From: an uncultured Planctomycetota bacterium
GTDB lineage: Bacteria; Planctomycetota; Planctomycetia; Gemmatales; Gemmataceae
DNA length: 64,000 bases
NCBI GenBank assembly: GCA_963849325.1
Contig: CAWKHF010000002.1
Location: forward strand, 160,001 to 224,000
Direction: 5' to 3'
The notes beneath the pieces were generated by a model. The model saw only the letters and a program-made list of their open reading frames with translations. It searched no databases and was not told the DNA's origin. A program made the translations under genes and the position numbers. Shown in pieces: positions 1 to 41,896 of the stretch (position 1 is the first letter of the stretch; every line of letters begins with the position of its first letter).

Positions 1-2225
1 CGGTCCTCGGCGAAGGCACGACGCAGCTCGGCGTCGCCGCAGAAGTGCGCCAGCAGGCGCAGCTCGATCTGCGAGTAGTCCGCCGTCACCAGCCGCCAAC
101 CCTCGGCCGGCAGAAACGCTTGCCGGATCTGCTGTCCCTCTTCCCGACGCACCGGAATATTTTGTAAATTCGGCTCACTCGACGACAATCGACCCGTGGA
201 AGCCACCGTCTGGTTGAACGCCGTGTGGACCCGGCCGGTCTGCGGATTGACCATCTCCGGCAGAGCATCGACGTAGGTGCTCTTGAGCTTGGCGATGCGG
301 CGATGTTCGAGGATCTTGCGGGGCAAGGCGGCGCCGGAATGGTCGAGGGCGGCCAGCTTTTCCAGCGTCTCCTGGTCCGTGCTGGCCGCGCCGGTGATGC
401 CGGTTCGTCCCTGCACCGGCAGCTTCAACTCCTCGAACAGGACCTTGCGCAACTGCACCAGCGAACCGATGTTGAACGGATGCCCGGCCAGCTCGTAAAT
501 CTCTTTCTCGATCGTCGCCAGCTGTTGTCCCATGTCCACGCTCAGGCCGCGCAGGAAGGGCAGGTCGAGGCGAATGCCGTTGAACTCCAACTCGGCGAGC
601 ACCTCGATGAGCGGTACTTCCACGTCATCGTACAGCTTGCGCAGCGGGCTGTTCGCCTCCAGCTCGGACTCCAGCATCCCGCACAGGCGCCAGGCCACGT
701 CGGCGTCCTCGCCGGCGTACACGGCGACGCGCTCGGTCGGCACCTGATCCATGCGCAGCTGCGGCGTCTTGCGGCTCTTCTTGCCGATCAGGTCCGTGAT
801 GGGGATGACCTGATGGTTCAGGTAGCGCCGCGCCAGCTCTTCCAGACCATGACTTCGTTCGCCGGCATGCAGGAGGTAATCGGCGACCATTGGATCGCCG
901 ACCACGCCGCGCGGCTGTACGCCGCGGCCGCGGAGTACCAGCAGATCGTACTTGATGTTCTGGTTGACCTTGGCCACGCCGGGGGCTTCCAGAATCGGGC
1001 GCAGCCGCGCCAGCGTCGAGTCCGGATCGAGCACGGATGAGCCTTCCGGACCGCGCAGCGCCAGATACCACGCCTCGCCGGCGCGCCAGGAAAAGGCGAA
1101 GCCGACAATGTCCGCTTGCAACGGGCTGAGACTGGTCGTCTCCAGGTCGAAGGCGATCCGTTTCTGCTGGAACAGATCGCGATAAAACGCCTCGAATTTG
1201 TCCTCGGAATCGATCAGCCGATAGTCGGCCTGCCAGTCGTCACCCTTCGGGGCCGAGGTAGACGTCTCGGCGGAAGCGCCATTAGCCGGGGCGTTGGCGC
1301 CGAAGGGGAACAACTCGCCGGCGGTGAACAGCTCGCCCTGCACGGCGGCGGCGCCGCGTCCGGAATCGCGGAACTGATTGGCGAGGCTGTGGAAACCCCA
1401 CTCCTGGAACAGCTCGCGCAGACGCGGCCCGTCCAGGTCGCGCAGGCGCCAGCCGTCCCAGTCCAGTTCGATCGGAACATCGGTGGCGAGGCGCACGAGC
1501 CGCCGCGCCCGGTCGATGAGTTCGCCGCCGTGGCGCAGGTTCTCCTGCCGCTTGGCGCCGGGGATGCGGTCGATGTTGGCGAGGATGTTTTCCAGGGTGC
1601 CGTACTCTTGCAGCAGCTTGGCCGCCGTCTTGATGCCGATGCCGGGCACGCCGGGCACGTTATCGACCGCGTCGCCGACCAGCGTTTGCAGATCGACGAC
1701 CTGCTCGGGTTTGATGCCCCAGTCGGCCATCAGCTCGTCGCGGCCAAACGCCGCCCGCTTGCGCAGGCTGTACAGGTGGACGCGGTCGTCGATCAACTGG
1801 CGGCAGTCCTTGTCGCTGGTACACAGGAAGACCTCCAGTCCGCGACGAGCGGCGGCGGCGGCGAGGGTGGCGAGCACGTCGTCGGCCTCGAAGCCGGCCA
1901 CGCTGACGACCGGCACGTTCATGGCGTCGAGCAGGCGGTGGATCAGCGGCATCTGCAATTGCAGGTCATTGGGCATCTCGTCGCGGTGCGCCTTGTATTG
2001 CGGATAGATGGCGCTGCGGAAGGTCGGCTCGGCGCGGTCGAAGGCGCAGACGAGGTAGTCCGGCCGCAGGTCGCGCAGAAACAGCAAGTCGCGGGTGAAG
2101 CCGAACAGGGCGTTGGTCGGCAGCCCGGACGGACTGGTCATGCCGCGAATGGCATGAAAGACCTGGAAGATGAGCGAATGCGCATCCACCAGGTAGACAG
2201 TTCCGCTTACCGTGCCCGACGACAT
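1..2225 (-). CDS. polA: DNA polymerase I (3' end runs off the window)
   Basis: Manual minus-strand translation from ATG at 2225 gives MSSGTVSGTVYLVDAHSLIFQVFHAIRGMTSPSGLPTNALFGF (5'-3' exonuclease start). Near the left edge are TGRLSSSEPNLQNIP and ADYSQIELRLLAH (family A polymerase motifs). Absent from the ORF track because there is no stop in the window. Confidence 0.95.
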   Translation of the reverse strand, partial: MSSGTVSGTVYLVDAHSLIFQVFHAIRGMTSPSGLPTNALFGFTRDLLFLRDLRPDYLVCAFDRAEPTFRSAIYPQYKAHRDEMPNDLQLQMPLIHRLLDAMNVPVVSVAGFEADDVLATLAAAAARRGLEVFLCTSDKDCRQLIDDRVHLYSLRKRAAFGRDELMADWGIKPEQVVDLQTLVGDAVDNVPGVPGIGIKTAAKLLQEYGTLENILANIDRIPGAKRQENLRHGGELIDRARRLVRLATDVPIELDWDGWRLRDLDGPRLRELFQEWGFHSLANQFRDSGRGAAAVQGELFTAGELFPFGANAPANGASAETSTSAPKGDDWQADYRLIDSEDKFEAFYRDLFQQKRIAFDLETTSLSPLQADIVGFAFSWRAGEAWYLALRGPEGSSVLDPDSTLARLRPILEAPGVAKVNQNIKYDLLVLRGRGVQPRGVVGDPMVADYLLHAGERSHGLEELARRYLNHQVIPITDLIGKKSRKTPQLRMDQVPTERVAVYAGEDADVAWRLCGMLESELEANSPLRKLYDDVEVPLIEVLAELEFNGIRLDLPFLRGLSVDMGQQLATIEKEIYELAGHPFNIGSLVQLRKVLFEELKLPVQGRTGITGAASTDQETLEKLAALDHSGAALPRKILEHRRIAKLKSTYVDALPEMVNPQTGRVHTAFNQTVASTGRLSSSEPNLQNIPVRREEGQQIRQAFLPAEGWRLVTADYSQIELRLLAHFCGDAELRRAFAED

Positions 2226-2950
2226 GACGGCACAAATTCCGCTGTGTACAAGGGAAAAAACGTGCCCGCACAGGGGCGCTGAAGGATGCACAGGTTCGGC
2301 CGCCAATCCCACGGCCGCGACCATCAGGCGCGGCGAGGTCGGCGTGTTCGACGCCCAAACCCGAAACCGCGCGGGTGGTGGAGAGTCATCGCGGAAACCG
2401 GACGATACGAGTCCAGGAATAAGGGCGACTTCGCGAAGCTCAAATGCTCCGCCGGGACCGACAGGATCATCACCTGCGATCCGCCAGGAATGTCCAGCGC
2501 GACCCGGACGAAAGGCAACCGCGTCAAAGGCCGTACAGCCCCGCGGCTTTATGGTCTCATCGACGTCCGCGCGACCTATTCCTCAACCCGAACTCCGAGA
2601 GTGCCAATCCTACCTCGGATGCAAGGAGGAGGGCGGTTGGTGAAGATAGGGACGGGACATGATCGCACAATCGCGGAAGACAATTCACCTTGATCTATTT
2701 GGCAGTCTAAGGTTGGTTCCGCCGACTGTCAAGTCCTCTTGTGCCGCGAGGCGCGGCACGAATCCCCGGGGCCGCACCTTCCCCGGAAGGGCGGACAACG
2801 ATTCGGCTCTCTTTTCGATCGATCCGCCGAAATCGTTTCCTCCTTCCACGAAAGCGCGTATAATTCCCTTGAAAGTCCCCCAGTCTCCGTCCAAGATAAG
2901 AACATCCTGCTCGATGCTCTCTCCGCGACGAACCCGCCGGAATCAACCTC

Positions 2951-4120
2951 ATGAAGCGCTGGACAACGGTTACAACCTTCCTCGCCGTCCTGATAGCGGC
3001 TGCGGGGCTGCCTTCCCTCGTTGACGCCGCCGGCACCGCCATGGTGCCGGAACAGCGGAAGCTCCGGGAGTTGGTGCAGCGCCTGGGCGACACCGACTTT
3101 CAGGCGCGGGAACAGGCCAGCCAGGAACTGTTACGGATTGGCCTGCCGGCCAAGCAAGTCCTGGTAGAGGGGGCGAAGGCTCTCGACCTGGAAGTGCGGC
3201 GGCGCTGCCGCGAGTTGCTGCCGGAGGTTCTGGAGACCGATCGGCAGGCGAGGCTGGCGGCCTTCATCGCCGACAAGGACGGCAAGCAGAAACACGACCT
3301 GGCCGGCTGGTCGCGTTACCGGGACGTCGTCGGCGCCGACACCGCCGCCCGTCAATTGTTCGTCGAGATGCACAAGTGCGACACCGGCTTCCTCGCCGAC
3401 GTGGACAACGACCCCGAGCACGCCGGGGCGCAGTGGGCCAGCCTGTGCCAGAGCGTCTTTCAGAGGCTCTTCGCCAACCGCACTCCGGCCATCCAGCAGG
3501 TGCCGATGGGCGAGATCGCTTCCTTGCTGCTAGTCGCCGCCGATCCGAAAGTGCGCATTCCCGATCAGCAGCGCTACCTTCTTTTTAGCATCCTTCAGTA
3601 CCATGCGACTGCGCAGAACACCTTGCGGAACCGCGCGGCCTCGCCGTTCAAGAAGATCGTGCTGGCGTGGATCGAGCGGCAGGCCGACGACGAGATGGGT
3701 TTGCACCAGGTTTTCCACCTGCTCAACAACCTGGAGATGCGCGAAGGTCTGGATTTCGCCTTGAAGGTCATCCGCGACAAGAAGCCGCAGGGGATGATCC
3801 TGGCGACGGCCCTGACGACGGTGGGCAAGTTCGGCGACAAACAGCACGTGGCCGTGCTCGAGCTGTTCCTTCACGACAACACGGCGATCGGCAACTTCAA
3901 CCTCGGCAACGTGCGCGGCACCACGCAGGTCCGCGACGCGGCCCTGGCGATGATGGTCCGCCTGACCAAACAATCGCACAAGGACTACGGCTTCGCCGTC
4001 AGCCGCTTCAACAACGAGCACCTGATGGCCTATGCCAATTTCCTCGGCTTCAGCGACGACGATCAGCGCAACAAGGCGTTCGAGAAATGGAAGGGCTGGA
4101 AGGCCGCCCAGAAGAAGTAA
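2951..4120 (+). CDS. Secreted hypothetical protein with HEAT-like helical repeats
   Basis: 389-aa ORF with a signal peptide and LVQRLGDTDFQAREQASQELLRIG, a HEAT-like segment common in planctomycete proteins. Confidence 0.7.
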   Translation: MKRWTTVTTFLAVLIAAAGLPSLVDAAGTAMVPEQRKLRELVQRLGDTDFQAREQASQELLRIGLPAKQVLVEGAKALDLEVRRRCRELLPEVLETDRQARLAAFIADKDGKQKHDLAGWSRYRDVVGADTAARQLFVEMHKCDTGFLADVDNDPEHAGAQWASLCQSVFQRLFANRTPAIQQVPMGEIASLLLVAADPKVRIPDQQRYLLFSILQYHATAQNTLRNRAASPFKKIVLAWIERQADDEMGLHQVFHLLNNLEMREGLDFALKVIRDKKPQGMILATALTTVGKFGDKQHVAVLELFLHDNTAIGNFNLGNVRGTTQVRDAALAMMVRLTKQSHKDYGFAVSRFNNEHLMAYANFLGFSDDDQRNKAFEKWKGWKAAQKK

Positions 4121-4207
4121 TCGCCAGCCAGGCACACGACGGTTCACCAGTCGCGTTGACTTCCCTTCGCCGCGCCTCTACCCTACAGGAGAGGGTTCCT
4201 AACCAGG

Positions 4208-4597
4208 GTGCTTTTGTCGTGTTTCACTTGCGCAATCCTGATGGTCCTGATCGCCATTCGGCTGTTGATGCCGCCGGGGATCTGCGTGTGCAAATGGAGT
4301 TCGCCCGCCGCGCGCTTGCTGGTCGCGCTGCTGCAAAGCGAACGGCCGATCCCGGTCGAGGAGGAGCGCGACGACGACGATCACGCCCCCGGTTGCCCCG
4401 CCTCCCCGCTGGCCGTCGGCATGGGCGTCAAGCCCTCGACGCAACCGCTGTTGCCCCCCGGTCTGTCCCTCGATCCGCCTCCGCCGCTCGAATCGATACC
4501 ATCGTTTCCCGCCGTCTGCTCCGACGCGGAAACCTCCGGCCGCTTCGACCCTCCGCCAAGTCCTCTCTATCTGACACTCCGCGCACTCCTCCTTTAA
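4208..4597 (+). CDS. Small hypothetical protein upstream of the RND metal-efflux genes
   Basis: 129-aa ORF with hydrophobic N-terminus, CxC and DDDDHAPGCP segments; co-oriented with the efflux genes. Confidence 0.45.
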   Translation: MLLSCFTCAILMVLIAIRLLMPPGICVCKWSSPAARLLVALLQSERPIPVEEERDDDDHAPGCPASPLAVGMGVKPSTQPLLPPGLSLDPPPPLESIPSFPAVCSDAETSGRFDPPPSPLYLTLRALLL

Positions 4598-4611
4598 CGG
4601 CCACTCATCGG

Positions 4612-4726
4612 CAGTTCTGAGTTCTGAGTTCTGAGTTCTGAGTGAAAACAGAACTCCGAACTCTTCATTCAGAACTCCGAACTCCGAACTCTTCACGCAG
4701 AACTCAGAACTCAGAACTCAGAACTG
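4612..4726. repeat. Inverted array of heptamer repeats (GTTCTGA)n...(AGAACTC)n
   Basis: Directly visible tandem heptamers in inverted arrangement. Confidence 0.85.
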
Positions 4727-4735
4727 GAGACGCGG

Positions 4736-6075
4736 ATGCCGTCCCGAGTACCCCGTCTGTTGTCGATGCTCCTGGCCCAGTTGCCGACCGTGCTCACCCT
4801 GGCCGTCCTCGGCGGAGTGGGCTGGTGGGGGTATATCTGGGAGTGGAAAATCCCGCCCTGCCCGTGCTGCTGCGCCGCGAGGCGGACAAGACGGAGGAAA
4901 CCAAGAAAAAAGAAGAGAAGGAAGTATCCGGCAGCGTGGACCAACCGCTGCCGCTGGTGCCGCTGCCCTCGGAAGAAGCGGCGGAGGCGGCCGGAATCAA
5001 GGTGACGGCGGTCGAGGAGAGAGACGTCGGCGAATACGTAACGGCCTTTGGCGAGATCGATTTCGACCAGAACCGCTACGCTCACCTGTCCAGCCGCGCC
5101 GCCGGCACGGCCTGGAGCGTGCAGAAGAACGCCGGCGACCAGGTGAAGAAGGGCGAGGTGTTGGCCCTGATCGCCGCGCCGGAGTTGGCGAAGATCAAGT
5201 TCGATTTGCAGCAGACGCTGTTGCTGGTCGATACGCGCGCCCGTCTGTTGCGGCGCCGGAGAGAAACCAAGGGCGCCATTGCGCCGCAGCTGGTTGATGA
5301 GGCCGAAGCATCCCTGCGCAAAGCGCGGATTCGCCTGTTCGGCTACCAGCAGTCGCTCCAGGATCTCGGCCTGACCGTCCATCACGAGGACCTGGCCAAG
5401 CTGAGCGAGGAAGAGATCGCCGTCCGCTTGCGCACGCTGGGCATTCCCGACTCGCTGTTGCAGCGACTCGATGCCGCCACGCTGACGAGCAATCTGCTGC
5501 CGATGTACGCGCCGTTCGACGGCGTGGTCGTCAAGCGTGACATCGTCACCGGCGAAATCGTCAACACGACGACGCCGCAATTCGTGGTCGCCGACGTGCG
5601 CCGGCTGTGGCTGCTGTTGCACGTGCGCCTGGAGGATGCCGATCCGCTGGCCGAGCGCCAGGACGTCGCCTTCGATCTCGACGGACCCGGAGGCAAAGCT
5701 CCGCCGACCAAGGTCGCCTGGGTCAGTGCCGAGGTGGACGAGAAGACGCGAACCGTCACCGTGCGTGCCGACGTGCCCAACCCCGATGGCCGACTGCGGC
5801 CGCACACTCTGGGCACCGGCCGTATCCTCGTCGGCCAAGCTCGCCGGCGGATCGTGCCTAACGAGGCGTTGCAATTCGATGGCCAATCCCACCTCGTCTT
5901 CGCGCGAGGCGAGTCGGCCACGGAGTATCAGCCGCTGCGCGTGAAGCTGGGGCCGCGCCACGATGCCTTCACGGAGATCGTCTCCGGCGTGCGGGCGGGA
6001 CAACTCATCGCCACGTCCGGCAGTCACGTGCTGCTGTCTGAACTGCTCAAGAAACGCATCGGCGGCGAGGATTGA
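4736..6075 (+). CDS. Efflux RND transporter periplasmic adaptor subunit (CzcB/CusB-like); apparent frameshift near 4850
   Basis: N-terminal TM segment in one frame (ATG 4736); body in another frame with AHLSSRAAG..GDQVKKGEVLA, APFDGVVV and VDEKTRTVTVRADVPNPDGRLRP. Confidence 0.85.
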
Positions 6076-6082
6076 GGAAAAA

Positions 6083-6168
6083 AATTAACCACAGATGAAC
6101 ACAGATGAATACAGATAAAAATCCAAGAATTTGAATCCGTGTTTATCTGTGTTCATCTGTGGTTAATT
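6083..6168. repeat. Intergenic inverted repeat of 9-10-mer units (ACCACAGATGAACACAGAT family)
   Basis: AATTAACCACAGATGAACACAGAT ... ATCTGTGTTCATCTGTGGTTAATT. Confidence 0.9.
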
Positions 6169-6184
6169 CTTTTTTGGAGAGGGC

Positions 6185-9100
6185 ATGCTTAACGCCATCA
6201 TCGATTGGTCGCTGCGGAACCGTTTCCTCGTGCTGGGCGGCGCGTTGGTCTTTATCGTCCTGGGGGCGTGGTCGCTGTCGCAGCTCGACATCGACGCCTT
6301 CCCCGACACGACGCCGGTGCAGGTGCAGATCAACACCATCGCGCCCGGCCTGGCCCCGGAGGAGGTCGAACGGCAAATCACCTTCCCCGTCGAGCAGGCC
6401 ATCAACGGTCTGCCGCGCTTGCAGCAGCTTCGCTCCATCTCCAAGTTCGGCATCTCGCAGGTCGTCGTCGTCTTCGCCGACGGCACCGACATTTTTTTCG
6501 CCCGCCAGATGGTCAACGAACGGCTGAGCATCGCCGAGATCCCCGAAGGCATCCCGCGACCGAAGATGGGCCCCGTCGCCACCGGACTGGGGGAGGTCTT
6601 CCACTATCTTGCGGTGCCGAAAGAGGGAGAGCAGGTCGAGGAACTGACGCACCTGCGCACGGTCCAGGATTGGGTCATCAAGCCGGCCATGCGCACGGTG
6701 CCGGGCACCGCCGAGATCAACGGCTGGGGCGGCTACGAGAAGCAGTACCAGGTGCGCATCAAGTCGGAGGCGCTGCTGCACTATGAGATTTCGTTCGAGC
6801 AGGTGATGCAGGCGGTGCGCGCCAACAACCTGGCGGCCGGCGGCGGCAACATCCAGCAGGCCGGGGCCATGTACCTGATCCGCGGCCTGGCCCGCACCGT
6901 CAACGTGGACGAGATCAAGAAGATCATCGTCACCACGCCGCGGCCGGGCGTGCCGGTGCGCGTCGGCGACGTGGCCGACGTCGAGATCGGCCACGACATC
7001 CGCCTGGGCGGCGTCACCAGCCAGGGACGCGGCGAAGTCGTCCTCGGTCTGTGTTTCATGCTCATGGGCGAGAACAGCCACGAAGTCACCGACCGCCTCA
7101 AGGGCAAGCTCGACGACGTGAAAAAAACGCTGCCGCCCGACGTGAAACTGGTCACGGCTTACGACCGCACTCGGCTAGTCGATAAGGTCATCCACACCGT
7201 TTACAAGAACCTGTTCGAGGGCGGTCTACTGGTCGTCGCCGTGCTGTTCATTTTCCTGGGCAACTTGCGGGCGGGCCTCATCGTGGCGTTGGCGATCCCG
7301 ATCTCCATGCTGTTCGCCTTCTGCGGCATGTGGCGCTTCGGCATCGCCGGTAGTCTGCTCAGTCTCGGCGCCATCGACTTCGGCCTGGTGGTCGATAGCT
7401 CCGTGGTCATGGTCGAGAACGTGGTGCGCCACCTGGCCCACGACAAGAACGACCTGCGCAGCCGGCTCGCTATCGTCCGCGACGCCGCCGTCGAGGTGCG
7501 AACGCCGACCATGTTCGGCGAGCTGATTATCATGATCGTCTACCTGCCGATCCTGACGCTGCAAGGCGTCGAGGGTAAGCTGTTTCGACCCATGGCGCTG
7601 ACGGTGATTTTCGCCCTCGTCGGCTCGCTGATTTTGTCGCTGACCTTCATGCCGGTGCTGACGAGTCTGCTGCTGCCGCGCCACCTGGAAGAGAAAGACC
7701 CCTGGCTGGTGCGTCTGGCCCGCTGGGGTTACGCCCCGGTCCTGCGCTACGCCCTGCGGCACGGCGTCGCCGTGCTCGTTCTCGCCGTGGCCGCCCTGCT
7801 TTTCGGTGCCCTGCTGGCCCTCAATCGCGGCGGCGAGTTCGTGCCGCAGCTGTCGGAGGGAGCGCTGGTCATTAACATCCGCCGCCTGGCCGGTACGGAC
7901 CTCAACGAGTCGCTGCGCTACAACACGGCCATGGAGAAATTGCTGCTGGCGAAGTTCCCCGAGGAGATCGAGCGCGTCTGGAGCCGCTGCGGCACCGCCG
8001 AGGTCGCCACCGATCCGATGGGACCGGAAGAAACGGACATGTTCATCACTCTCAAGCCGCGCGAACAGTGGACCGTCCAGACCAAGGAAGGCGAGCCGGT
8101 CACGACGCAGGAAGAGCTAGTGAAGCTCATCCGCGAGGAGTTCGAGGACCTTCCCGGCCAGCGCCTGTCCATCACCCAGCCGATCCAGCAGCGCATCGAC
8201 GAGATGACCTCCGGCGCCAAGGCGCAGGTGGTCGTCAAGCTATTCGGCGACGACTTCGACACGCTGAAGAACACCGGCGACGAGTTGGCCCGCGTGCTGC
8301 GCAGCATTGCCGGCAACGCCGATGTCAACGTCGATCAGATCACCGGCCTTCCCGTCTTGCAGATCCAGGTCCGGCAGACGGAGCTGGCCCGCTATAACGT
8401 GACGGCGCGATCGGTACTGGACCTGGTGGAATCGCTGGGCGGCAAACCGCTGGGCGAGGTGGTCGAAGGGCAGTTGCGCTTTCCGCTGGTAGTGCGTCTG
8501 CCGGAACGGCTGCGCGCCAGTCCCCAGGCCATCGGCGCCATCCTGGTCACGACCTCGACCGGCGAACGAGTGCCGCTGTCGCGCCTGGCCGAGGTGAAGC
8601 TGGTGGAAGGGCCGGCGCAGATCTCGCGCGAGTGGGGCCAGCGCGTCATCGCCGTGCAGTGCAACGTCAGCGACCGCGACATCGAAAGTTTCGTGGCCGA
8701 GGCGAAACAGAAGATCGCGGCCGGCGTCAAGCTGCCGCCCGGCCGCTATCGCCTCGAATGGGGCGGACAGTTCGAGAACCTAGAGCGAGCCAAGACGCGG
8801 TTGCTGATCGTGGTGCCCGTCGCCCTGACGCTGATCTTCGTGCTGTTGTACATCACCTATAACCGGCTGGGCGACGTGCTACTGGTGTTCTCCGGCGTTC
8901 TGTTCGCCAGCGTCGGCGGCGTGCTGGCGTTGTGGCTGCGCGACTTGCCGTTCTCGATCTCGGCCGGCGTCGGCTTCATTGCCCTGTCGGGCGTGTCGGT
9001 GCTCAACAGTATGGTGCTGGTGACGTTCATTCGTCAGCTCCGCGACCGCGGCGTGCCGATGGACCGGGCCATCGAGGAGGCGGCGTTGACGCGGCTGCGG

Positions 9101-10972: not shown

Positions 10973-12427
10973 TCAAACGCGGACGTCGGCGGTCTGTCCG
11001 AGCAAATGTCGATAGCGCTGCCGAATCGGCTCGACTTCCCCGGCGAGAAACTCGTCCACCTGCTGCGGCGCCCGGCCAACGAATTGGCCGCGGTCGAGCA
11101 CGGACTCGAAGTCCACGCCGGCCAGCAGCGGGTCAGCGCGGAGACGGTCGAGCAGATCGTTGTCGCGGGCGCCGGCCTTCAGGGCGGCGGTGACAGCATG
11201 ACTGTGGCGGCGGATACACTCGTGGACGGCCTGCCGATCACCGCCCCGCGCCACGGCCGCCATCAAGAGGTTCTCCGTCGCCATGTACGGAAAGATCTCG
11301 TCCACGTTCCGCGCGATCACCTCCGGATTGACGACCAGGCCATTGCTGACGTTCAGGGCCAGTCGCAGCACGGCGTCGGCGCTGAGAAACGCCTGCGGCA
11401 GCGTCAGGCGGCGGTTGACGCTGTCGTCCAGCGTGCGCTCCAGCCATTGCGTCGCCGCCGTCTGCGCGGCGCTGACCGACAGACTGACGAGGAAGCGCGA
11501 CAGGCCGCACAGGCGCTCGGCTCGCATCGGATTGCGCTTGTACGCCATCGCCGACGAGCCGACCTGGTCCGCCTCAAACGGCTCATCAATCTCCTGCCGG
11601 TGTGACAGCAGCCGCAGGTCGGTGCCGAACTTGTGGGCGCTCTGCCCCAGGCCGGACAGGGCGTCGAGGATCTGGCTATCGACCTTGCGCGAGTAGGTCT
11701 GTCCTGTGACGGGGTAGACAGACTCGAAACCCATCTTACGGGCGACCAGGTCGTCCAGCCGGCGGACGCGCTCGTGATCGCCGCGAAAGAGGGCGAGGAA
11801 GCTGGCCTGCGTTCCGGTGGTGCCCTTTGCTCCCCGGAAGCGGAGCGAATCCAGGCGGTGCTCCAGCTCGTGCAAGTCGAGTACGAAATCGTAGCACCAC
11901 AGGCAGGCGCGCTTGCCGACGGTCGTGAGCTGGGCCGGCTGGAAGTGCGTGAAGCCGAGCGTGGCCAGGTCGCGCCAGCGGGCGGCGAATCGCGCCAGCG
12001 CATCGATGACGCCGACGAGACGATCGCGCAACAGGCCCAGCCCCTCGCGCAGCAGAATCAGATCGGTGTTGTCGGTGACGTAGCAGCTCGTCGCCCCCAG
12101 GTGAATGATCTCGCGCGCGTCGGGACAGACTTCGCCATACGTCTCGATGTGGGCCATGACGTCGTGGCGTCGCCGTCGTTCGTGGACTTCGGCCCGAGCG
12201 AAATCGATGTCCTCGACGTGCGCCCGCATCTGTTCGAGCTGGGCCGGTGTGATGCGCGGCGTGACGCCATCGTCGTCGAGCAGCCCCAGCTCGTGCTGTG
12301 CCTCGGCCAGCGCGACCCAAAGCCGGCGCCAGGTCGAGAACTTGCGCTGCGGACCCCACAGCTCGGCCATCTCGCGGCTGGCATATCGACTCACCAGAGG
12401 ATTGTCGTAAACCTGAAAGGAATCCAT
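10973..12427 (-). CDS. purB: Adenylosuccinate lyase
   Basis: [19 protein letters not shown], and the fumarate-lyase signature [11 protein letters not shown]. Confidence 0.95.
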
Positions 12428-22742: not shown

Positions 22743-22900
22743 ACCTTGGCGATTCGACGTACTCGACAGACCGCGAATCGTCGCCGATTGTCCTCCGCTT
22801 TCGGCCGAATCGCAAGCAACAAATCGGCGGTTCGGACTGCCCTTCCGCCGCTGCGGCGCTGAGTTTATCATCGCGGTGGAGGAGTTGAGCCATGCGCACG

Positions 22901-23596
22901 ATGTCCGCACCACAAGCTACCCCCCTGAAAAACGGTGTTCCGTTGCTGGCCAACGGCGATCGCATGAAACAACCCGAGTTCCACCGTCGCTACTTGGCTT
23001 CTCCCGATGACGTCAAGTTTGAATTGATCGAAGGGATCGTTTACATGGCATCGCCCCTGCGCTGGAAGCACGGAAACTACAGCCAGGAATTGAGCCTCGT
23101 CTTTGGTCTCTACCGGGCCGCCACCACCGGCGTCGAAGCGGGCGATAACGCCACCATCCTTCTGGGCGAGGAGAGCGAACCGCAACCGAACCTCGTCTTG
23201 CGTATCCTTCCGGAGTATGGCGGTCAATCGCGCCTGGAGGAGGAGTACGATGCGCGGGCCCCGGAGTTGCTGGCGGAGATCGCCTACAGCTCGCGAGCCA
23301 TCGACCTGAATCAAAAACGAAATGATTATGAGCACAATGGCGTCGTGGAATATTTGGTACTGTCCATCGAGGACCAGGAACTACACTGGTTCCATTTCCC
23401 TTCGGCGAAGATGATCCGGCCGAATCGTCAGGGCGTGTCGCGTTCCCTGGTCTTTCCGGGGTTGTGGATCGAGAACCAGTCCTTGCTGGCCCGTAATACC
23501 GCGCGTCAGATTGACGTGGTGCGGCAAGGTCTCGCCAGCCGGGAACACGCCGTGTTTGTCAAGCGTTTGCAAGCCGCTCACCGCAAGCATTCCTGA
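22901..23596 (+). CDS. Uma2 family endonuclease-like protein (copy 1)
   Basis: KFELIEGIVYMASP, EPQPNL, PELLAEIAYSS, GVVEYLV. Confidence 0.88.
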   Translation: MSAPQATPLKNGVPLLANGDRMKQPEFHRRYLASPDDVKFELIEGIVYMASPLRWKHGNYSQELSLVFGLYRAATTGVEAGDNATILLGEESEPQPNLVLRILPEYGGQSRLEEEYDARAPELLAEIAYSSRAIDLNQKRNDYEHNGVVEYLVLSIEDQELHWFHFPSAKMIRPNRQGVSRSLVFPGLWIENQSLLARNTARQIDVVRQGLASREHAVFVKRLQAAHRKHS

Positions 23597-23611
23597 AAAG
23601 GTAACGTCGTC

Positions 23612-24322
23612 ATGAGAGCCTTCTCCACTCCTCACTCGGTTCGCGCGACCAAGAAACCGCTTGAGCCACTCGTCAACGGCGAGCGCATGAAGCAGCCAGA
23701 GTTCCACCGCCGTTACGAGGCGTGTCCCGAAGAGGAGAAATGGGAGCTGATTGGAGGTATCGTCTACATGGCCTCGCCGTTAAGACTGGGCCACTCGCGC
23801 CACGATGGCAAAGTTGGTCTCGTCCTGGAACTGTATGAGCTTGCGACGCCCGGGACAGAGGCACTGCACAATGCGACGATGATCCTCGGCGAGGAAAGCG
23901 AACCGCAGCCGGACCTCGGCCTCCGTATCCTTCCGGAATACGGCGGCCAATCGCGGACGACTCCCAATGACTATCTACAAGGTGCTCCCGAACTCCTCGT
24001 CGAAGTGGCTCATAGCCGCCGTGCCCTTGCCATGCACGGCAAACGCGAGGATTACCAACGCACCGGCGTCCTCGAATACCTCGTCGTTTGCTGGCAGGAA
24101 CAGGAAGTTCACTGGTTCCATTTCCCGACGGGCAAGTCGATTGCGCCCAACCGCCAAGGCATCTCTCGTTCGCGTGTCTTTCCGGGATTGTGGCTCGATG
24201 TCGCGGCGCTGCTTCGCCTGGATTCCGCGCGTCTGATGGAAGTGCTTCAGAAAGGTCTCGCCAGCCGCGAGCATGGCGCGTTCGTCAAGCATCTCCAGAC
24301 CGCCCATCGCAAGCATTCCTGA
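23612..24322 (+). CDS. Uma2 family endonuclease-like protein (copy 2)
   Basis: KWELIGGIVYMASP, EPQPDL, PELLVEVAHS, GVLEYLV. Confidence 0.88.
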   Translation: MRAFSTPHSVRATKKPLEPLVNGERMKQPEFHRRYEACPEEEKWELIGGIVYMASPLRLGHSRHDGKVGLVLELYELATPGTEALHNATMILGEESEPQPDLGLRILPEYGGQSRTTPNDYLQGAPELLVEVAHSRRALAMHGKREDYQRTGVLEYLVVCWQEQEVHWFHFPTGKSIAPNRQGISRSRVFPGLWLDVAALLRLDSARLMEVLQKGLASREHGAFVKHLQTAHRKHS

Positions 24323-27991: not shown

Positions 27992-28009
27992 CTTGGTAGG
28001 GGAACGGAG

Positions 28010-28083
<74 letters not shown>

Positions 28084-28266: not shown

Positions 28267-28467
28267 TCATTTGTCCTGGCGCTCGGCCCTTTCGGGCAAG
28301 ACCTTGGCCTCCTTCCGGTGTGCCCAGGCTCGACCAATGACGAGCGCTTGCCGGAGGCTGGTCACTGGGATCTTCGACTTGCTGCCGACAGTGAGTCGGC
28401 CCTCTCGGAACTCGTGCAACGCTCTCCGCACCTCGTTCGAGACTTCCGAAGTGTAGGTCCGAATCAT
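28267..28467 (-). CDS. Small DUF6496-like protein
   Basis: EVRRALHEFREGRLTVGSKSKIPVTSLRQALVIG resembles the recalled DUF6496 pattern; GGAG RBS upstream. Confidence 0.6.
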   Translation of the reverse strand: MIRTYTSEVSNEVRRALHEFREGRLTVGSKSKIPVTSLRQALVIGRAWAHRKEAKVLPERAERQDK

Positions 28468-28547: not shown

Positions 28548-28562
28548 AGCAAAGAGCGTGCC
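28548..28562 (-). promoter_or_regulatory. Sigma-54-type promoter core, left copy of the 15-bp direct repeat; upstream of the DUF6496-like gene
   Basis: Minus strand reads (cc)GGCACGCTCTTTGCT, matching the TGGCACG-N4-TTGCW consensus except the first base. Confidence 0.6.
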
Positions 28563-28671
28563 GGCTTTGCCACGAAATTGCCCTCTGTTACGGAATGACG
28601 CCGGGCGGCTTTGTTACGTTTTGCCCTCTTGTTACGGAATGACGCCGGACGGAGCCGGTCTGTTACGGAAT
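28562..28671 (+). repeat. Left-end ~44-bp imperfect tandem repeat with three TGTTACGGAAT motifs
   Basis: Motif at 28586, 28630 and 28661; degenerate TGCCACGAAAT at 28568. Confidence 0.8.
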
Positions 28672-28845: not shown

Positions 28846-29286
28846 CTAGAGGTCTTCGTTCGGATTAGACGCTATCACATTTAGGCCAGCTGGTGCCTCG
28901 CGGGCTATTTCAGCCGGGTTGCCGAGCGTCTGCCGTACTTCCTTCATGGTAAATCCGGCAATCCGTCTTTCCAATTCCTCCACGCTAGGCAAAGTGTCTC
29001 TACTCCGCGAGCGAGTTGCCGTCAGCCACCAACCGATACCGCCAAGACCCATGCAGACCAGTAACAATGTGGCTACACCGCCGACAAGTAGGCGGGGATG
29101 CCGGAACGTCTTCCCTAACGACGTTGCTTGGCTTGTTTCTGTTGCAGGTGGATCGACCCGCACAGCCGTAGGCGGCTTCGGTACAGTTACTTGCTGTTTG
29201 CAGTTACCGCACATCACGGCTTGACCGACGCGCGACGGATCACCAGACAATCGCGTGCCACATTTCGGACAGACGAAGTAGATCAT
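28846..29286 (-). CDS. Zn-ribbon membrane-anchored hypothetical protein (possibly truncated)
   Basis: MIYFVCPKCG...CGNCK, one TM helix, GFTMKEVRQTLGNP; AGGAG RBS upstream. Confidence 0.65.
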   Translation of the reverse strand: MIYFVCPKCGTRLSGDPSRVGQAVMCGNCKQQVTVPKPPTAVRVDPPATETSQATSLGKTFRHPRLLVGGVATLLLVCMGLGGIGWWLTATRSRSRDTLPSVEELERRIAGFTMKEVRQTLGNPAEIAREAPAGLNVIASNPNEDL

Positions 29287-29555: not shown

Positions 29556-29584
29556 TTGACGAAAACAGAATTGCTGCTCACAAT
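29556..29584 (+). promoter_or_regulatory. Sigma-70-like promoter upstream of the tRNA-like gene
   Basis: TTGACG-17 nt-CACAAT. Confidence 0.5.
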
Positions 29585-29585
29585 C

Positions 29586-29623
29586 AAAAAGAAGAAGGCC
29601 GGGAGGTTGCACCCTCCCGGCCT
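29586..29623. terminator. GC-rich hairpin; terminator-like on the minus strand
   Basis: AGGCCGGGAGG-TTGCAC-CCTCCCGGCCT with an A-rich run on its left. Confidence 0.5.
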
Positions 29624-29638
29624 CCGGGGATACGAAGC

Positions 29639-29710
29639 GCCGGGTTCGTCTATTGGTAGGACAGCGGGCTTTAGCCCCGCTTAAGAGGGGTTCGATTCCC
29701 CCACCCGGCA
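29639..29710 (+). tRNA. tRNA-like gene with UUA anticodon (putative ochre suppressor or pseudo-tRNA; Gln/Glu-like body)
   Basis: Acceptor GCCGGGT/ACCCGGC, D arm GTC/GAC, anticodon stem GCGGG/CCCGC with loop CT-TTA-GC, T arm AGGGG-TTCGATT-CCCCC (one mismatch), discriminator A. Confidence 0.8.
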
Positions 29711-29767
29711 TTTCGTTCCTTAATTTTACCAAACGTGGCAACCGCGTCAACCAGAAAGAGGCTCCCA

Positions 29768-30243
29768 TGTCTCCGCGCATCGAAGCCACCGACAAGGATG
29801 GCATTCGGTGGGTGGTTACTGGCAATAGTCATACGGACTTGGAACTTGGCATCACGGCTTTACGAGCCAGTTTTGCCCACAAAGAGGAAGTCGTACCGTC
29901 GCGCCGACGCGGACGACCGCCCAAGAATGGTGTTGCCAAAAGCAACGAAGTTGAGAAGACACGATTGGAAGCAGCCTTGTCCATCCTGCGAGCGATTCAG
30001 AAGGGTGGCGATGCCGGTGCAGATTCATCTTCGCTTCTCTCCGCAACCGGGATCGACAAGCCGGAAGCCAAGGCGCTCGGGCCGATGATGGGGATGCTCG
30101 CCAGAGTCTTACGAGATAATCGTCTGACGCAAAACAAAATCTACATCACAACTGGTTTCAGTCCTAACAAGCGATGGGTTCCGCAAGCGGAAATGAATGA
30201 TGCGATCAAGAAACTGGAAGAAACCATGAAGAATCAACTCTAA
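29768..30243 (+). CDS. Hypothetical protein with AT-hook-like RRRGRPPK motif
   Basis: ATG 29768 preceded by GAGG; open frame to TAA 30243. Confidence 0.6.
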
Positions 30244-30586: not shown

Positions 30587-31685
30587 GGAAATAAGTGTAG
30601 CAAAAAAAATCTGGATTCAAGCCTCCGGGTTTTTATTGTTGTTTTATTTATACTACAATAAATCAGAGGAGACAGCACTCGCGTTTAAGGGAAATCCCAA
30701 TGAACGCACGCGAAGAACGCGGCCTTGTTATCGCGGCCCTGTGCAAGCTGAACAAGACGCCGGACGGGTGGCTTGTCCCGTCGCAGTCGAACGAGACGAT
30801 CTACCGCGTGAACGTGGAAAAGCAGACCTGCACTTGCCCGGATCACCAAGAGGGTGGGTTCAAGTGCAAGCACCTGTACGCCGTCGAATTCACCGCCAAG
30901 CGGGAAGTCGGCACGGACGGCACCGTGACCGAGACGAAGACGCTGACCTTCACGGAGAAGGTGACGTACAAGCAGGACTGGCCCGCGTACAACCTCGCCA
31001 GAGCATCGAGAAGGACCGCCTGCAAGAACTTCTCTTCGACCTGTGCCGTGGCATCGAAGAACCCGAGCGCAGCGGCAGCGGTCGCAAGCCGCATTCGATG
31101 AAGGACATCGATCTTCGCGTCGGTGTTCAAGGTCTACAGCACGATCAGCAGCCGGCGCTTCTCTTCCGACCTGCGCGAAGCCCACGAACGCGGCTACCTG
31201 TCCAAGCCGATTCCCGGCCTGAAAGTGCCGCAGTTCTTTGAGAACGCGGCCCTCACGCCGATCCTCAAGAGCCTGATCGTCCAGAGCAGCTTGCCGCTCC
31301 GCTCGGTCGAAACGAAGTTCGCCATCGACAGCAGCGGCTTTTCGACCAGCAAGTTCGAGCGCTGGTTCGATCACAAGTACGGCGTCACGCGGCGGCGATG
31401 CACCTGGATCAAGGTCCATATCGCGTGCGGCGTCAAAACGAACGTGGTGACGGCGGTTCGCATTCTGGACAAGGACGCGGCACGACTCCCCGCAGTTCAT
31501 CCCGCTCGTCAAGGAAACGGCCAAGAACTTCACCATCGGCGAAGTGTCGGCGGACAAGGCATACGCCAGCGTGGAGAACTTTGAGACCGTCGCCGAGTGC
31601 GGCGGGACCGGCTTTATGGCCTTCAAGTCGAACACGACCGGCGCGGCCGGCGGACTGTTCCAGAAGATGTTCCACTATTTCCAGT

Positions 31686-33222
31686 CTGTACTTTCCGCGA
31701 TTTCCTTATAGTTCGCCATAAGCGATCACTCTTGGGCGTAAAGTTGCTGGCGAGGTAACGAAGCATGGCTGCGACGAGCGGGTGGACACAAGCCGGCTCC
31801 TCGAACACGATGAAGGGTAGTCAACAACCTTCGTCCTGCCAAGGAGCCGGCCATGCCATTGTCGCAACTGCCCGCCCTGCTGTCCGCCTGTTTCCCCGAC
31901 ATCACCGCCGCCCTCGACCGCCGCTCCGCCCCCCGCCTGCTCCTGCTCTTCGTCGGCGCCCTCTTCGCCAAGGGCCGACGCACCGTCACCTCCTGGTTCC
32001 GCGCCGCCGGCATCACCGCGACTTCCGCCCCGCCTACAACGCCCTGTGGGCCGCCGGCCGACGCGCCGAGGCCCTGGCCTATCGCCTGCTCTGCCTCGCC
32101 CTCAAGCCGCTGATGCGTCAGGCCCCGGCGACCACCTGCTCTTCGCCATCGACGACACGCCCACGGCCCGCTACGGCCCCGCGGTGCAGGGCGCCGGCAT
32201 CCATCACAACCCCACGCCCGGCCCGGCCGGCGAGAAGTTCGTCTACGGCCACATCTGGGTCACGCTGGCCTGGCTGGCCCGCCATCCCGCCTGGGACACC
32301 CTGGCCTTGCCGCTGCGCGCCCTCCTCTACGTCCGCGCCAAGGACGTGCCCACACTGGCCAAGCATTACCCGTGGACGTTCCGCACCAAGCTGGAATTGG
32401 CCGCCGAACTGGTCCGCTGGCTGACGCGTCTGGCTGGGCGGCCTGGGCAAGGAGCTGTGGCTGGTCGGTCGATGGCGCCTACGCCAAGCGGCCCTTCCTC
32501 AAGCCGGTGCTGGCCTTGGGCGTGGTGGTGTTCAGCCGGCTGCGCAAGGATGCCAACCTGCGGAGCTTGCCGCCGAGCGAAACGTCGGCGCGGTCAGCGG
32601 GGGCCGCTGCCGACCTACGGCAAGGAGCGGATCGACCTGGCCAAGCGTGCCGGGCAGAAGCGCGGCTGGCAGACGGTGGCGTGCGTGCAATACGGCGAGC
32701 GGGTGGTCAAGACCATCAAGACGTTCGAGGCGACCTGGCGTCCGGCCGGCGGCCGCATCCGCGTGGTGATCGTGCGCGAGGACGACGGCTGGCTGGCCTA
32801 CTTCTGCACCGACCCGGCGGTGACGGCGGCGGACGATCCTGGAGGCGATGGCGGATCGCGGCGCCATCGAGCAGTTGTTCAAGGATGTCAAGGAGGTGTG
32901 GGGAGCGGGTCAGCAGCAGGTGCGCAACGTGTACGCCAGCATCGGGGCGTTCACGGTCAACCTGGTGCTGTACAGCGTGGTGGAGGCGTGGGCGTGGGCG
33001 CGTGGCGAGGAGGAGTTGGTGGACCGGAGCCGGTCGCCGTGGGACACGGAGGAGCGTCGGCCGTCGCACGCGGACAAGCGTAAGGCGCTGCAACGGCGAA
33101 ATCCTCCGCGAAGAAATCCAGGCGGCTCTGGGGCAGCGGACAGAGCGAGAGGAGTTTCAGGATCTCGCCATCCGCCTGCTCGATCTGGCCGCATGAGTGT
33201 TAGATTTTCACGGAAAGTACAA
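31686..33222 (+). mobile_element. IS701-like insertion sequence
   Basis: Terminal IR CTGTACTTTCCG / CGGAAAGTACAA; 6-bp duplication TCCAGT at 31680-31685 and 33223-33228. Confidence 0.85.
31853..33196 (+). CDS. IS701-family transposase (multiple frameshifts)
   Basis: GRRTVTSW.RAAG, LFAIDDTPT.RYGP.VQGAG.HHNPTPG, FRTKLELA, VDGAY, RGAIEQLFKDVKE. Confidence 0.8.
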
Positions 33223-33259
33223 TCCAGTTCAAGCAAGATGAGTACATGAAGCACTACCA

Positions 33260-34781
33260 GGGTAGGCGTCTCGAAAGTTGGTGGAATTTTTGTACACAAA
33301 GAGGAATGTTGAGCGTTTGCCGGAAATCCACCCTTCACCCGGAGGCCAGCATGAAGGCTCCCCTGTCGGACCAGCAAGAAGCCAAGCCCAAAAACTGGCC
33401 CAAGCCATCGCACAGGCCAGCTACGACGACATCCTCAACATCGCCCGTACCCTCGTCGCCACCGACAACGCCTCTCTCTTCGGCGATACCGAGTTCACCG
33501 TCCGCGACCTCAGCCACCGCATCGCCGCCAAAGCCTACCGCCACCATCTTGAGCAAAAAAAAACGGCTACCAAGGAGCCAGCGTAACCTGTCCCCACTGC
33601 CACTACGCCGCCGCTTATCACGGCGACGCTGCCATCGCCTCGTCGGCCTGTGCGGCGAGCTTCGCCTGCCAACGCGCCTACTACTACTGCCGACGCTGCG
33701 GCCAAGGGCTTTTTCCCCTTCGATCAGCAAGCCGGCATCGGCCCAACGCCGCCTGACCCCCGCCGCCGAACGACTGGCGACTCTGGCCGGCGGCGTCAGC
33801 GACAGCTTCGACAAAGCCCGTCAACTTCTGCACGAGATGGCCGGCGTGCGACTGTCCGAATCGACCGTCGAACGCACCACCGAAGACGTGGGCCAACGCA
33901 TCGCCCGGCTTTTGGGCAAGGCATCACCTTTGGCCCGGATGTGCGTTGGCGTTGGCATCGGGATGCCCAGGGACGAAGCGTGGCCTACGTCACCTTGGAT
34001 GCCAGCGGCACCACGGCAGCAAGGGCCAGGCGGCCGGCACGCCGACGGCCGCATGGCCTATGTCGGCGGCGTCTACAATCCGCCGCCGCCGGAGTGGTTG
34101 CGTCCGGGCGGCCCGGCGCCGCCGCTGCAAGCGCGTTACGTCAGTGGCTTGTATTCGCTGGCGCAGATGGGACCGTTGTTGCGTTACCAGGCGACGGCGG
34201 TGGGCATGCAACCGGCGGAAGTCTGGATCGCCCTCAGCGACGGCGGCAACGGTCTGGAGGAGCTTTTGCAAAGCCATTTCAACCGTGCCGACCTGGTGGT
34301 AATTTTGGACTTTTACCATGCGGCCAGCTATGTGCAAGCGTTGGCGCGTGCCTTGTATGCCGACGAGCGAGAGCAGGCGTCGCGGCAAGCGGAGCAGTGG
34401 TGTCGTTTGTTGAAAGAGGAGGGGGGAGCGACGACGTTGGCGGTGCTGCGTGCCTGGGATTGGCCGGCGCGGAAGTCGTGGGCGTGGCGTGCGGCTTGGC
34501 AGGCGTTGGAGAGTTATTTTGCGAACAATCTGCATCGGATGGAGTATCCGGAGTATGTAGCGGAGGGCTGGCAGATTGGCAGTGGGGTAGTGGAGTCGGC
34601 GTGCAAGACGGTGGTAGGTCAGCGTTTGAAAGGTGCGGGCAAGCGTTGGGGCGAAGCGGGAGCGCATGCGTTGTGTCATGTGCGGGCTTTTACCGCAGTG
34701 AGAATGGTCAATGGGAGGCGTTCTGGGAGCGCGACTACGCGAACTGATCATTTGTTCCACCAACAAAAGTGATGCCTACCC
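33260..34781 (+). mobile_element. ISKra4-like (Mutator-type) insertion sequence
   Basis: Terminal IR GGGTAGGCGTC...GTTGGTGGAA / TTCCACCAAC...GATGCCTACCC; 9-bp duplication GCACTACCA at 33251-33259 and 34782-34790. Confidence 0.85.
33351..34747 (+). CDS. ISKra4-family transposase (A9 run near 33555, possible programmed frameshift; other frameshifts)
   Basis: LSDGGNG, ILDFYHA, RMEYPEY..EGWQIGSGVVESACK.VV.QRLKGAG.RW. Confidence 0.82.
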
Positions 34782-35025
34782 GCACTACCATCAGCGGAGC
34801 AACGTCGAAAGCACCTTCTCAACGGTTAAGCGGAAGTTCGGCGACTACATTCGCAGCAAGCTGGAAACGGCGATGGTCAACGAGGACTTGCGCAAGTTCC
34901 TCTGTCACAACCTCTGCTGCCTGATTTAAGAAGAGTGCGAGTCGGGAATCGATGCGATCTTCTGGCCGGACGCCAGCCAGTGCAGCTTGAAGTCAACCGT
35001 CCGGTCTGATACGATTTAACCAAAC

Positions 35026-35063
35026 TGCTACGGAATCAATGGTTTAAGATTGATTCCGTAGCA
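35026..35063. repeat. Right-end inverted pair of TGCTACGGAAT motifs
   Basis: TGCTACGGAATCAAT-ggtttaag-ATTGATTCCGTAGCA. Confidence 0.85.
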
Positions 35064-35075
35064 AAGAGCGTGCCA
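35060..35075 (-). promoter_or_regulatory. Sigma-54 -24/-12 promoter consensus, right copy of the direct repeat
   Basis: Minus strand TGGCACGCTCTTTGCT = TGGCACG-N4-TTGCT. Confidence 0.65.
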
Positions 35076-41803: not shown

Positions 41804-41896
41804 AAAACCACGAATCACACGAATAACACGAATAAGAAAAAACACGAAGAATGTACCTCTTCTTTCATTCGTGTCATTCGTGTGATTCGTGGTTTT
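41804..41896. repeat. Intergenic inverted repeat of 9-mer units (ACCACGAATCACACGAAT family)
   Basis: Arms nearly identical to 14886-15003. Confidence 0.9.

Follow-up and report, generated by a model that had tools for sequence, protein, structure and literature searches.

A tRNA gene with a UUA anticodon in a transposon-like island of a planctomycete: a candidate weak ochre suppressor

Introduction

Plasmids, phages and integrative elements are already known to carry tRNA genes. Natural nonsense-suppressor tRNAs, from which stop-codon reassignment can start, tend to be set aside as quirks of annotation. The 64,000 nucleotides of planctomycete DNA analyzed here (the window) contain a tRNA-like gene whose UUA anticodon is complementary to the stop codon UAA. 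The locus raises the question of whether a transposon can carry an ochre-suppressor tRNA, or whether the gene is a relic, an RNA with some other role, a defence against a nuclease, or an ordinary tRNA gene altered by mutation or error.

The tRNA gene and its anticodon

The gene was called by ARAGORN and Rfam, and a segment parse resolved its parts:

29639..29710, + strand: tRNA gene with anticodon UUA

ARAGORN reported a 72-nt tRNA-Stop at 29639-29710(+) with the anticodon tta at position 33. The Rfam model RF00005 aligned in full (positions 1-71 of 71) and gave 52.7 bits against a gathering score of 29, with E = 1.8e-08 for the whole window. The window has one other tRNA gene, a tRNA-Gly(gcc) at 28009-28081(-) that scores 70 bits. 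In the segment parse, the acceptor stem had 7 of 7 pairs and the anticodon stem 5 of 5, and 20 of 21 stem pairs overall were standard. The D stem consists of four pairs, GTCT/GGAC, closing with a G-U pair. The anticodon loop, C-U-UUA-G-C, has the canonical seven nucleotides with U33, and the anticodon itself (positions 34-36, nucleotides 29671-29673) is followed by G37 in a Glu-like body. The variable loop is 5 nt long, the T stem has a single A-C mismatch, at pair 49-65, and the T loop, TTCGATT, is of the GTTCRA type. The discriminator is A and CCA is not encoded. Universal tRNA positions U8, A14, G18, G19, U33, G53, T54, T55, C56, A58 and C61 were all found by eye. The near-complete 72-nt cloverleaf of the sequence-only reading, with its 7-bp acceptor, 5-bp anticodon stem, CT-TTA-GC loop and T-stem A-C mismatch, is thus upheld.

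The island and its transposase

The tRNA gene lies in a 6.5-kb segment, from about 28.55 to 35.07 kb, that is bracketed by the two copies of an exact 15-nt direct repeat. Its features, from left to right, are as follows.

28548..28562, + strand: left copy of the exact 15-nt direct repeat (repeat search)
28587..28671, + strand: three direct copies of GYTACGGAAT inside the left end (motif count)
28846..29286, - strand: ORF146, with an N-terminal CxxC...CxxC zinc-ribbon-like motif (by eye) and a hydrophobic stretch; no family match
29767..30243, + strand: ORF158, which starts 57 nt 3' of the tRNA gene, has a ribosome binding site and ends in TAA
30700..31518, + strand: SWIM-DDE transposase remnant, N-terminal part, with an out-of-frame patch that holds a TGA at 31099-31101
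31484..31684, + strand: transposase remnant, middle part, shifted into a different frame
31685..34782, + strand: nested insertion of 3.1 kb that splits the transposase (IS701-like pieces and an ISKra4-family gene)
34783..34965, + strand: transposase remnant, C-terminal part, with an in-frame TAA at 34927-34929
35027..35062, no strand assigned: two inverted-orientation copies of GYTACGGAAT inside the right end (motif count)
35060..35074, + strand: right copy of the exact 15-nt direct repeat (repeat search)

The 15-nt repeat has two matches in the window where 0.23 were expected, and 0 of 100 shuffles had two. GYTACGGAAT has five, all immediately within the island ends (0.11 expected; 0 of 100 shuffles with five). 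The host is a planctomycete of high GC (about 0.64), and GC content dips to 0.555-0.59 between 28 and 32 kb. With the exact repeat and the motif clusters at both ends, the tRNA gene lies within a bounded, low-GC, transposon-like insertion; the earlier placing of the gene inside a mobile element is supported by these features. No integrase was found in the island. A second copy of the 3' half of the tRNA gene was sought in the window and not found, nor was any att-type duplication, and there is thus no sign of integration into this tRNA gene. Searches for near-identical DNA matches to the tRNA region found none in E. coli genomes and none in plasmids. Between the tRNA-Gly gene and the left repeat there is a 66-aa ORF, 28267-28467(-), with a weak match to DUF6496 (21.3 bits, cut-off 24), and the window also encodes a DUF1559 protein with an N-terminal methylation motif.

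The transposase had an N-terminal SWIM finger and a DDE_Tnp_1 domain. Its remnants (30700-31684 and 34783-34965) align with residues 1-388 of an intact protein from another genome, locus L012, which is described below. Relative to that protein, the window gene has the patch with the TGA, a frameshift near 31484-31518, the 3.1-kb insertion and the TAA at 34927-34929; judged by these lesions, the SWIM-DDE (IS5-like) transposase of the window is dead. The nested insertion comprises a frameshifted IS701-like transposase (32046-33249) and an ISKra4-family transposase gene (33246-34772). The SWIM-DDE transposase protein had no match in plasmids. At least 7,671 of 8,000 scored proteins matched the family with E < 0.001, and the best 120 relatives are 65-76% identical. 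The contigs of numerous family members are 1.4-1.6 kb long, so that most members are probably simple insertion sequences without passengers.

ORF158 has just two relatives among 5.8 billion proteins and no family match in Pfam, PHROGs, NCBIfam or PADLOC; Atlas matches of up to 0.86 are leads only, and the AlphaFold model (pLDDT 66.7) was judged too poor for a fold search. No terminator was found between the tRNA gene and ORF158.

Elsewhere in the window, a short DDE_Tnp_1 transposase fragment of 159 aa (57907-58386) is unrelated to the island, the genome being rich in IS debris. Two tandem genes of the Uma2 family (putative restriction endonucleases) occupy 22892-24322, their DNA repeats being 70-76% identical at a spacing of 723 bp. 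A 37-nt inverted repeat whose arms, 19 nt apart, are 89% complementary and consist of repeated CACGAAT-like units is found at 41804-41896, upstream of cyclase/tryptophan dioxygenase genes, where it may be an operator or a terminator.

Isotype and origin of the tRNA body

In the plasmid collection, the closest match to the window tRNA was a tRNA-Glu(UUC) gene in the tRNA array of the Pseudomonas megaplasmid pBASL58 (L002), with 82.8% identity over positions 7-63. The sole phage match was a Myxococcus phage tRNA-Trp (78.7%). Alignment indicates that the D arm, the 5' strand of the anticodon stem and the variable/T junction are common to the window tRNA and tRNA-Glu. The GTCT/GGAC D stem contains the U11-A24 and U13-G22 pairs, which we take to be a tRNA-Glu identity element, and is the same in all three tRNA-Glu genes compared. 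By this alignment, the body of the window tRNA is of the Glu/Gln structural type and Glu-like, in agreement with the likeness to tRNA-Gln/Glu that had been noticed in its D arm.

Other features of tRNA-Glu are not found in this gene. In place of a YUC anticodon with A37 it has UUA with G37, and in place of a 4-nt variable loop (base 47 missing) it has one of 5 nt. The 4-nt loop was seen in 3 of 3 tRNA-Glu genes and in 7 of 7 other UUA tRNAs, the latter described below. Positions 36 and 37 and the missing base 47, which serve GluRS as identity elements in E. coli, are all three changed, and this should lower the activity of the tRNA. A single TTG->TTA or TTC->TTA change had been offered as the origin of the anticodon. 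This cannot be maintained, since the loop departs from Glu loops at the adjacent positions 36 and 37 and the variable loop has one extra nucleotide; one base change is insufficient to explain the gene. These departures should also affect function. G37 beside A36 leaves the tRNA without the usual A37 modification site and should weaken it; the T stem sets the affinity for EF-Tu, and the A49-C65 mismatch there should lower activity; the extra variable-loop base should weaken activity as well. Among eight UUA tRNAs, G37, the 5-nt variable loop and the T-stem mismatch are unique to the window copy.

UUA tRNAs in other genomes

The genomes of 185,579 species were scanned with one pattern, which combined the Glu-type D stem, a YTTTAR anticodon loop and a standard T loop. 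Ten stretches matched, against a rough chance estimate of about eight; the window's own contig was not among them. ARAGORN called a tRNA(UUA) in seven of the ten and no tRNA in the other three. All seven were above the Rfam threshold, with a range of 49.6 to 62.7 bits, and the window tRNA, at 52.7, has the second lowest score of the eight.

Four of these genes (L003, L004, L007 and L008) lie among housekeeping genes. In L004 the tRNA(UUA) gene adjoins a tRNA-Glu(UUC) gene from which it differs solely at position 36; in L007 it follows gltX; in L008 it lies between yunB and tyrS; and in L003 it is beside a tRNA-Val gene, near genes for a pyruvate formate-lyase-like protein and a radical-SAM protein. 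In L010 the gene is within a tRNA array. To judge from the single-base difference between neighbors in L004, Glu-type tRNAs do become UUA tRNAs, either in nature or in MAG assemblies. In L007, a Bacteroidales MAG, the gene order over 5363-7053 is tRNA-Glu(CUC), gltX, tRNA(UUA), so that a stop anticodon occurs where a Glu tRNA would be expected, next to the gene for the Glu-tRNA synthetase.

Related loci in two other Planctomycetota

The remaining two genes, in L005 (Pirellulales) and L012, are from Planctomycetota MAGs, and in both the tRNA(UUA) gene is paired with a transposase gene as in the window. The transposase was not part of the scan pattern; it was found by an independent translated comparison, in which the L005 and L012 proteins had 48-69% identity to the window remnants. 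Both SWIM-DDE transposases are intact (421 aa in L005 and 399 aa in L012) and are encoded 390-400 bp 3' of the tRNA gene in the same orientation. They match DDE_Tnp_1 with 72.6-73.1 bits, and their best NCBIfam match is the IS5 family, with 103-110 bits, below the cut-off of 140. It should be noted that UUA in L005 and L012 was demanded by the YTTTAR part of the pattern, which sister elements with sense anticodons would escape; conservation of the anticodon is thus in part a product of how the search pattern was built.

L005 and L012 share a module of four parts: ORF135, the tRNA gene, a zinc-ribbon ORF of about 50 aa on the other strand, and the transposase gene. ORF135 and the zinc-ribbon ORF have no counterpart in the window. 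In L005, a pair of 34-nt inverted repeats, 88% complementary, flanks a 5.1-kb unit (1097-6229) that contains the four-part module together with arsR, an arsC-like phosphatase gene and an SBF-family transporter gene. Because these repeats enclose both the tRNA and the transposase genes, the unit is read as a transposon with tRNA(UUA) inside it. From its other genes, L005:1097-6229 looks like an arsenic-resistance transposon. The 34-nt box of L005 is also found upstream of ORF135 in L012, and no inverted repeats lie close around the transposase gene in either locus. The window was searched for this end box with up to 2 mismatches allowed, and none was found; the ends of the window island have the 15-nt direct repeat and the motif clusters, plus a loose likeness, by eye, to L005 and L012 in a GGCTTTGC(C)AC core.

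In L012 the tRNA gene starts 45 nt past the stop codon of ORF135, with a hairpin alone between them. Two TAA codons in tandem (3778-3783) close ORF135 of L012 just before the hairpin and the tRNA(UUA) gene; ORF135 of L005 ends in TGA. L012 also has, after its tRNA(UUA) gene, a partial tRNA-like piece (3905-3945) with a D arm, an anticodon arm and a CTTTAAC loop, for which there was no ARAGORN call. The anticodon arm of this piece is closer to the window tRNA than that of the intact L012 tRNA is, and the piece may be what is left of a second tRNA(UUA) gene in tandem.

The stems were free to vary in the scan pattern, except for the D stem and the G53-C61 pair, and could be examined for covariation. 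Across the three planctomycete tRNAs, standard pairs occupy 59 of 63 stem cells; 9 of 21 pairs have changed on both sides and 10 of 21 are invariant. Between L005 and L012 alone, 39 of 42 cells are paired, with four double changes, and the ORF135 proteins of these two loci are only 39% identical. Compensatory stem changes of this kind are the signature of a structured RNA under selection, and the counts of paired cells and double changes point to selection on this fold. In sequence, the window tRNA matches those of L005 and L012 at 40 of 60 comparable positions each, and the chromosomal Glu-type UUA tRNAs at 34-45 of 60-67 positions. As it is no closer to the former than to the latter, its tie to L005 and L012 is one of shared context alone, not of sequence, and orthology is assigned by context.

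Transcription signals around the tRNA gene

Three candidate signals flank the window tRNA gene.

29556..29584, + strand: promoter-like site TTGACG-17-CACAAT, 5' of the tRNA gene (9 of 12 consensus positions)
29584..29625, - strand: intrinsic terminator with a 13-pair stem, 10 of the pairs GC, and a U-run
29723..29750, - strand: promoter-like site TTGACG-16-TAAAAT with an extended -10 TG (10 of 12 consensus positions)

The promoter that had been proposed for the tRNA gene, TTGACG-17-CACAAT, was found as a site at 29556-29584 with the 9/12 match listed, but promoter-like sites are not clearly enriched over shuffles: the region has 3, against 1.2 +/- 1.0 in shuffled sequence, which is weak evidence. 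TTGACG boxes are also present 5' of ORF135 in L012 and L005, giving weak comparative support, and an alignment of the promoter regions of the three loci is suggestive at most.

The terminator on the opposite strand ends 13 nt short of the 5' end of the tRNA gene; on the + strand the same sequence would form a leader hairpin without a U-run. An opposite-strand hairpin with a U-run is found 5' of the tRNA gene in all three loci. Hairpin stability was -30.2 kcal/mol in the window (0 of 200 shuffles as stable), -27.5 kcal/mol in L012 (0 of 200) and -27.5 kcal/mol in L005 (8 of 200). The terminator scanner detected the window and L012 sites and not that of L005, which has a larger loop. The minus-strand promoter-like site is just 3' of the tRNA gene and is aimed across it; a transcript that began there and stopped at the terminator would be an antisense RNA about 125-130 nt long. 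In L012 and L005, transcription of the opposite-strand zinc-ribbon gene would run across the tRNA gene into the hairpin. Antisense transcription across the tRNA gene is therefore a plausible prediction from this layout, although the hairpins may equally be ordinary bidirectional terminators.

Stop-codon use in the host

TGA is the stop codon of 19 of 27 host genes with Pfam support, and TAG and TAA close 4 genes each. One of those ending in TAA is rpmA, in which the next in-frame stop is 95 codons on. Both rpmA and purB had been cited as host genes with TAA as a normal stop; this is right for rpmA, but purB (10973-12427, minus strand) ends in TGA. Since host genes, rpmA included, terminate at TAA, UAA does not behave as a sense codon, and the host genome is, by its stop-codon use, not recoded. 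With TAA ending 4 of 27 genes and TAG another 4 of 27, a strong suppressor would be costly.

When TAA was read as Gln, no convincing longer gene appeared near the tRNA gene and no conserved read-through extension was found locally. Two candidate read-through sites were considered and set aside. Reading through the TAA of ORF158 would add 83 residues rich in Arg, Ala and Pro, which look non-coding. The TAA at 34927-34929 in the window transposase stands where L005 and 15 of the 16 family proteins fetched have Gln, and similarity continues in frame beyond it. It was rejected as proof of a need for suppression, since three or more further lesions affect this gene, and no in-frame TAA occurs in the transposases of L005 and L012; it is best taken as one more decay mutation, though a suggestive one beside an ochre tRNA of the Gln/Glu type.

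A possible mobile suppressor and its alternatives

Our tentative preference is for the window tRNA(UUA) as a working, or recently working, mobile ochre suppressor; the preference is founded on the recurrence of the tRNA and transposase pairing in two other Planctomycetota, with compensatory changes in the stems. On the anatomy and conservation described above, tRNA(UUA) is probably a transposon-borne ochre suppressor, and a weak one. It would be transcribed from the TTGACG-17-CACAAT promoter, trimmed by RNase P and completed by addition of CCA. It would then be charged, most likely with Glu or Gln, and would read UAA, and UAG to a lesser degree, against competing release factors. As host genes such as rpmA end in TAA, suppressor activity would have to be low or controlled. 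G37 in place of A37, the A49-C65 mismatch and the extra variable-loop base would all weaken the window copy, and a convergent antisense transcript may damp it also.

These weakening features are compatible with a tolerated weak suppressor and with a decaying copy. That the tRNA family once worked, and that the window copy is now an inactive relic, a decaying passenger of a dead transposon that is barely made or charged, is a serious possibility even if we judge it on the whole unlikely. The adjoining transposase, with its TGA patch, frameshift, nested 3.1-kb IS and TAA at a conserved Gln, is in keeping with decay, as are the three departures found in this tRNA alone of eight and its next-to-lowest Rfam score (52.7 in a range of 49.6 to 62.7). 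Against decay, 20 of 21 stem pairs are intact and the universal positions checked are all present, a weak argument in that 72 nt can survive by chance; the promoter-like site and the flanking terminator are also retained. A structured RNA with a non-decoding role is a distinctly less probable explanation. Such an RNA could mark a site for RNase P processing, by which adjoining transcripts are separated and stabilized, or could belong to a sense/antisense regulatory pair, with a stop anticodon that serves mainly to keep it out of translation. The position of the L012 tRNA gene so soon after ORF135, with a hairpin alone between, makes co-transcription and RNase P cleavage likely there; the opposite-strand terminator 5' of the tRNA gene at all three loci implies antisense transcription, for which the window has a 10/12 minus-strand promoter-like site just 3' of the gene; and the stems covary. 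However, a processing signal needs no canonical 7-nt anticodon loop with U33, which is kept in all three loci, the hairpins may be mere bidirectional terminators between convergent genes, and the number of promoter-like matches shows no enrichment over shuffled sequence.

The gene might instead be an ordinary tRNA-Glu or tRNA-Gln gene altered by a sporadic point mutation or by an error of sequencing or assembly. Of the other seven UUA tRNA genes, five have housekeeping contexts (by gltX in L007 and in tandem with an otherwise identical tRNA-Glu in L004, for example), and all come from MAGs, in which rare alleles or errors at single bases are plausible. For the window gene we consider this very improbable: it differs from Glu at two adjacent loop positions and in the variable loop, it lies in an accessory island and not at a housekeeping site, and two further genomes have this anticodon paired with the same transposase family. 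Least credible of all is a decoy or replacement tRNA against an anticodon nuclease or a similar defence or toxin, which the sequence-only reading had entertained. Mobile elements and phages do carry tRNAs to counter anticodon nucleases. Here, however, none of 13 proteins from the island and the modules matches any of 5027 PADLOC models, searches of Pfam, NCBIfam and PHROGs found no nuclease or toxin families nearby, and no sense tRNA has a UUA anticodon, so that a replacement role makes no sense.

The preferred reading, a mobile and probably weak suppressor, can be extended to the speculative proposal that a planctomycete DDE transposon family carries its own ochre-suppressor tRNA, held in check by a convergent antisense transcript and tuning read-through in the host; we regard this fuller version as rather improbable. 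If it were true, the tRNA-bearing transposon could act as an addiction device of the toxin/antidote kind, or the tRNA could insure genes of the element against CAA-to-TAA hits, such as the TAA at a Gln position of the window transposase. More generally, if a tRNA of the suppressor type has been selected while riding on a transposon through different genomes, it would offer a route for the horizontal spread of altered decoding. It would also show in a natural case how cells tolerate a suppressor, with a weak tRNA and a seldom-used target codon, and possibly with control by antisense RNA. The window, L005 and L012 are three concrete loci on which to examine decoding, and tRNA(UUA) could supply new tRNA scaffolds for genetic-code work.

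Comparison with known systems

The laboratory ochre suppressors of E. coli are alleles of Gln, Lys and Tyr tRNA genes with the anticodon UUA, and are tolerated only when weak. Like them, the window tRNA has the body of a sense tRNA with a UUA anticodon and is expected to read UAA and, by wobble, UAG. The E. coli suppressors are single-base chromosomal alleles selected in the laboratory, whereas the window tRNA is natural, lies in a transposon, departs from its nearest isotype in the variable loop as well as at positions 36 and 37, and is found again in other genomes with the same transposase family.

Among natural sense tRNAs, the pBASL58 tRNA-Glu(UUC) shares with the window tRNA the D stem GUCU/GGAC with its U-G closing pair, the 5' strand of the anticodon stem, the variable/T junction and the T loop. 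The two differ in the anticodon (UUA in the window, UUC in pBASL58), at position 37 (G and A), in the variable loop (5 nt and 4 nt) and at pair 49-65 (A-C and A-U). The chromosomal tRNAs of L003, L004, L007 and L008 have the Glu-type D arm and UUA as in the window, with C36 changed to A, but they have A37 and a 4-nt variable loop, and occur in housekeeping contexts (recO, gltX, tyrS) without a transposase.

A tRNA-Sup-TTA has been predicted in the Klebsiella phage phiKp24 (PMC8386662) and another in Lactobacillus plantarum BDGP2 (PMC5637513). UUA was called there by tRNA finders and is likewise predicted only, and both tRNAs are single mentions without comparative evidence, whereas the present case has synteny in three genomes and covariation in the stems.

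In its terminal inverted repeats that enclose passenger genes, the L005 unit is like unit transposons, and its transposase is like those of the IS5 family in its DDE_Tnp_1 domain. It is unlike IS5-family elements in the N-terminal SWIM finger of its transposase and in having a stop-anticodon tRNA as a passenger. Among the papers listed by literature searches, none dealt with a transposon-borne or planctomycete UUA tRNA. New among these systems, it seems, is a DDE transposon family of Planctomycetota that keeps a stop-anticodon tRNA as a passenger, with compensatory changes in the tRNA stems and a putative antisense-terminator layout common to the loci.
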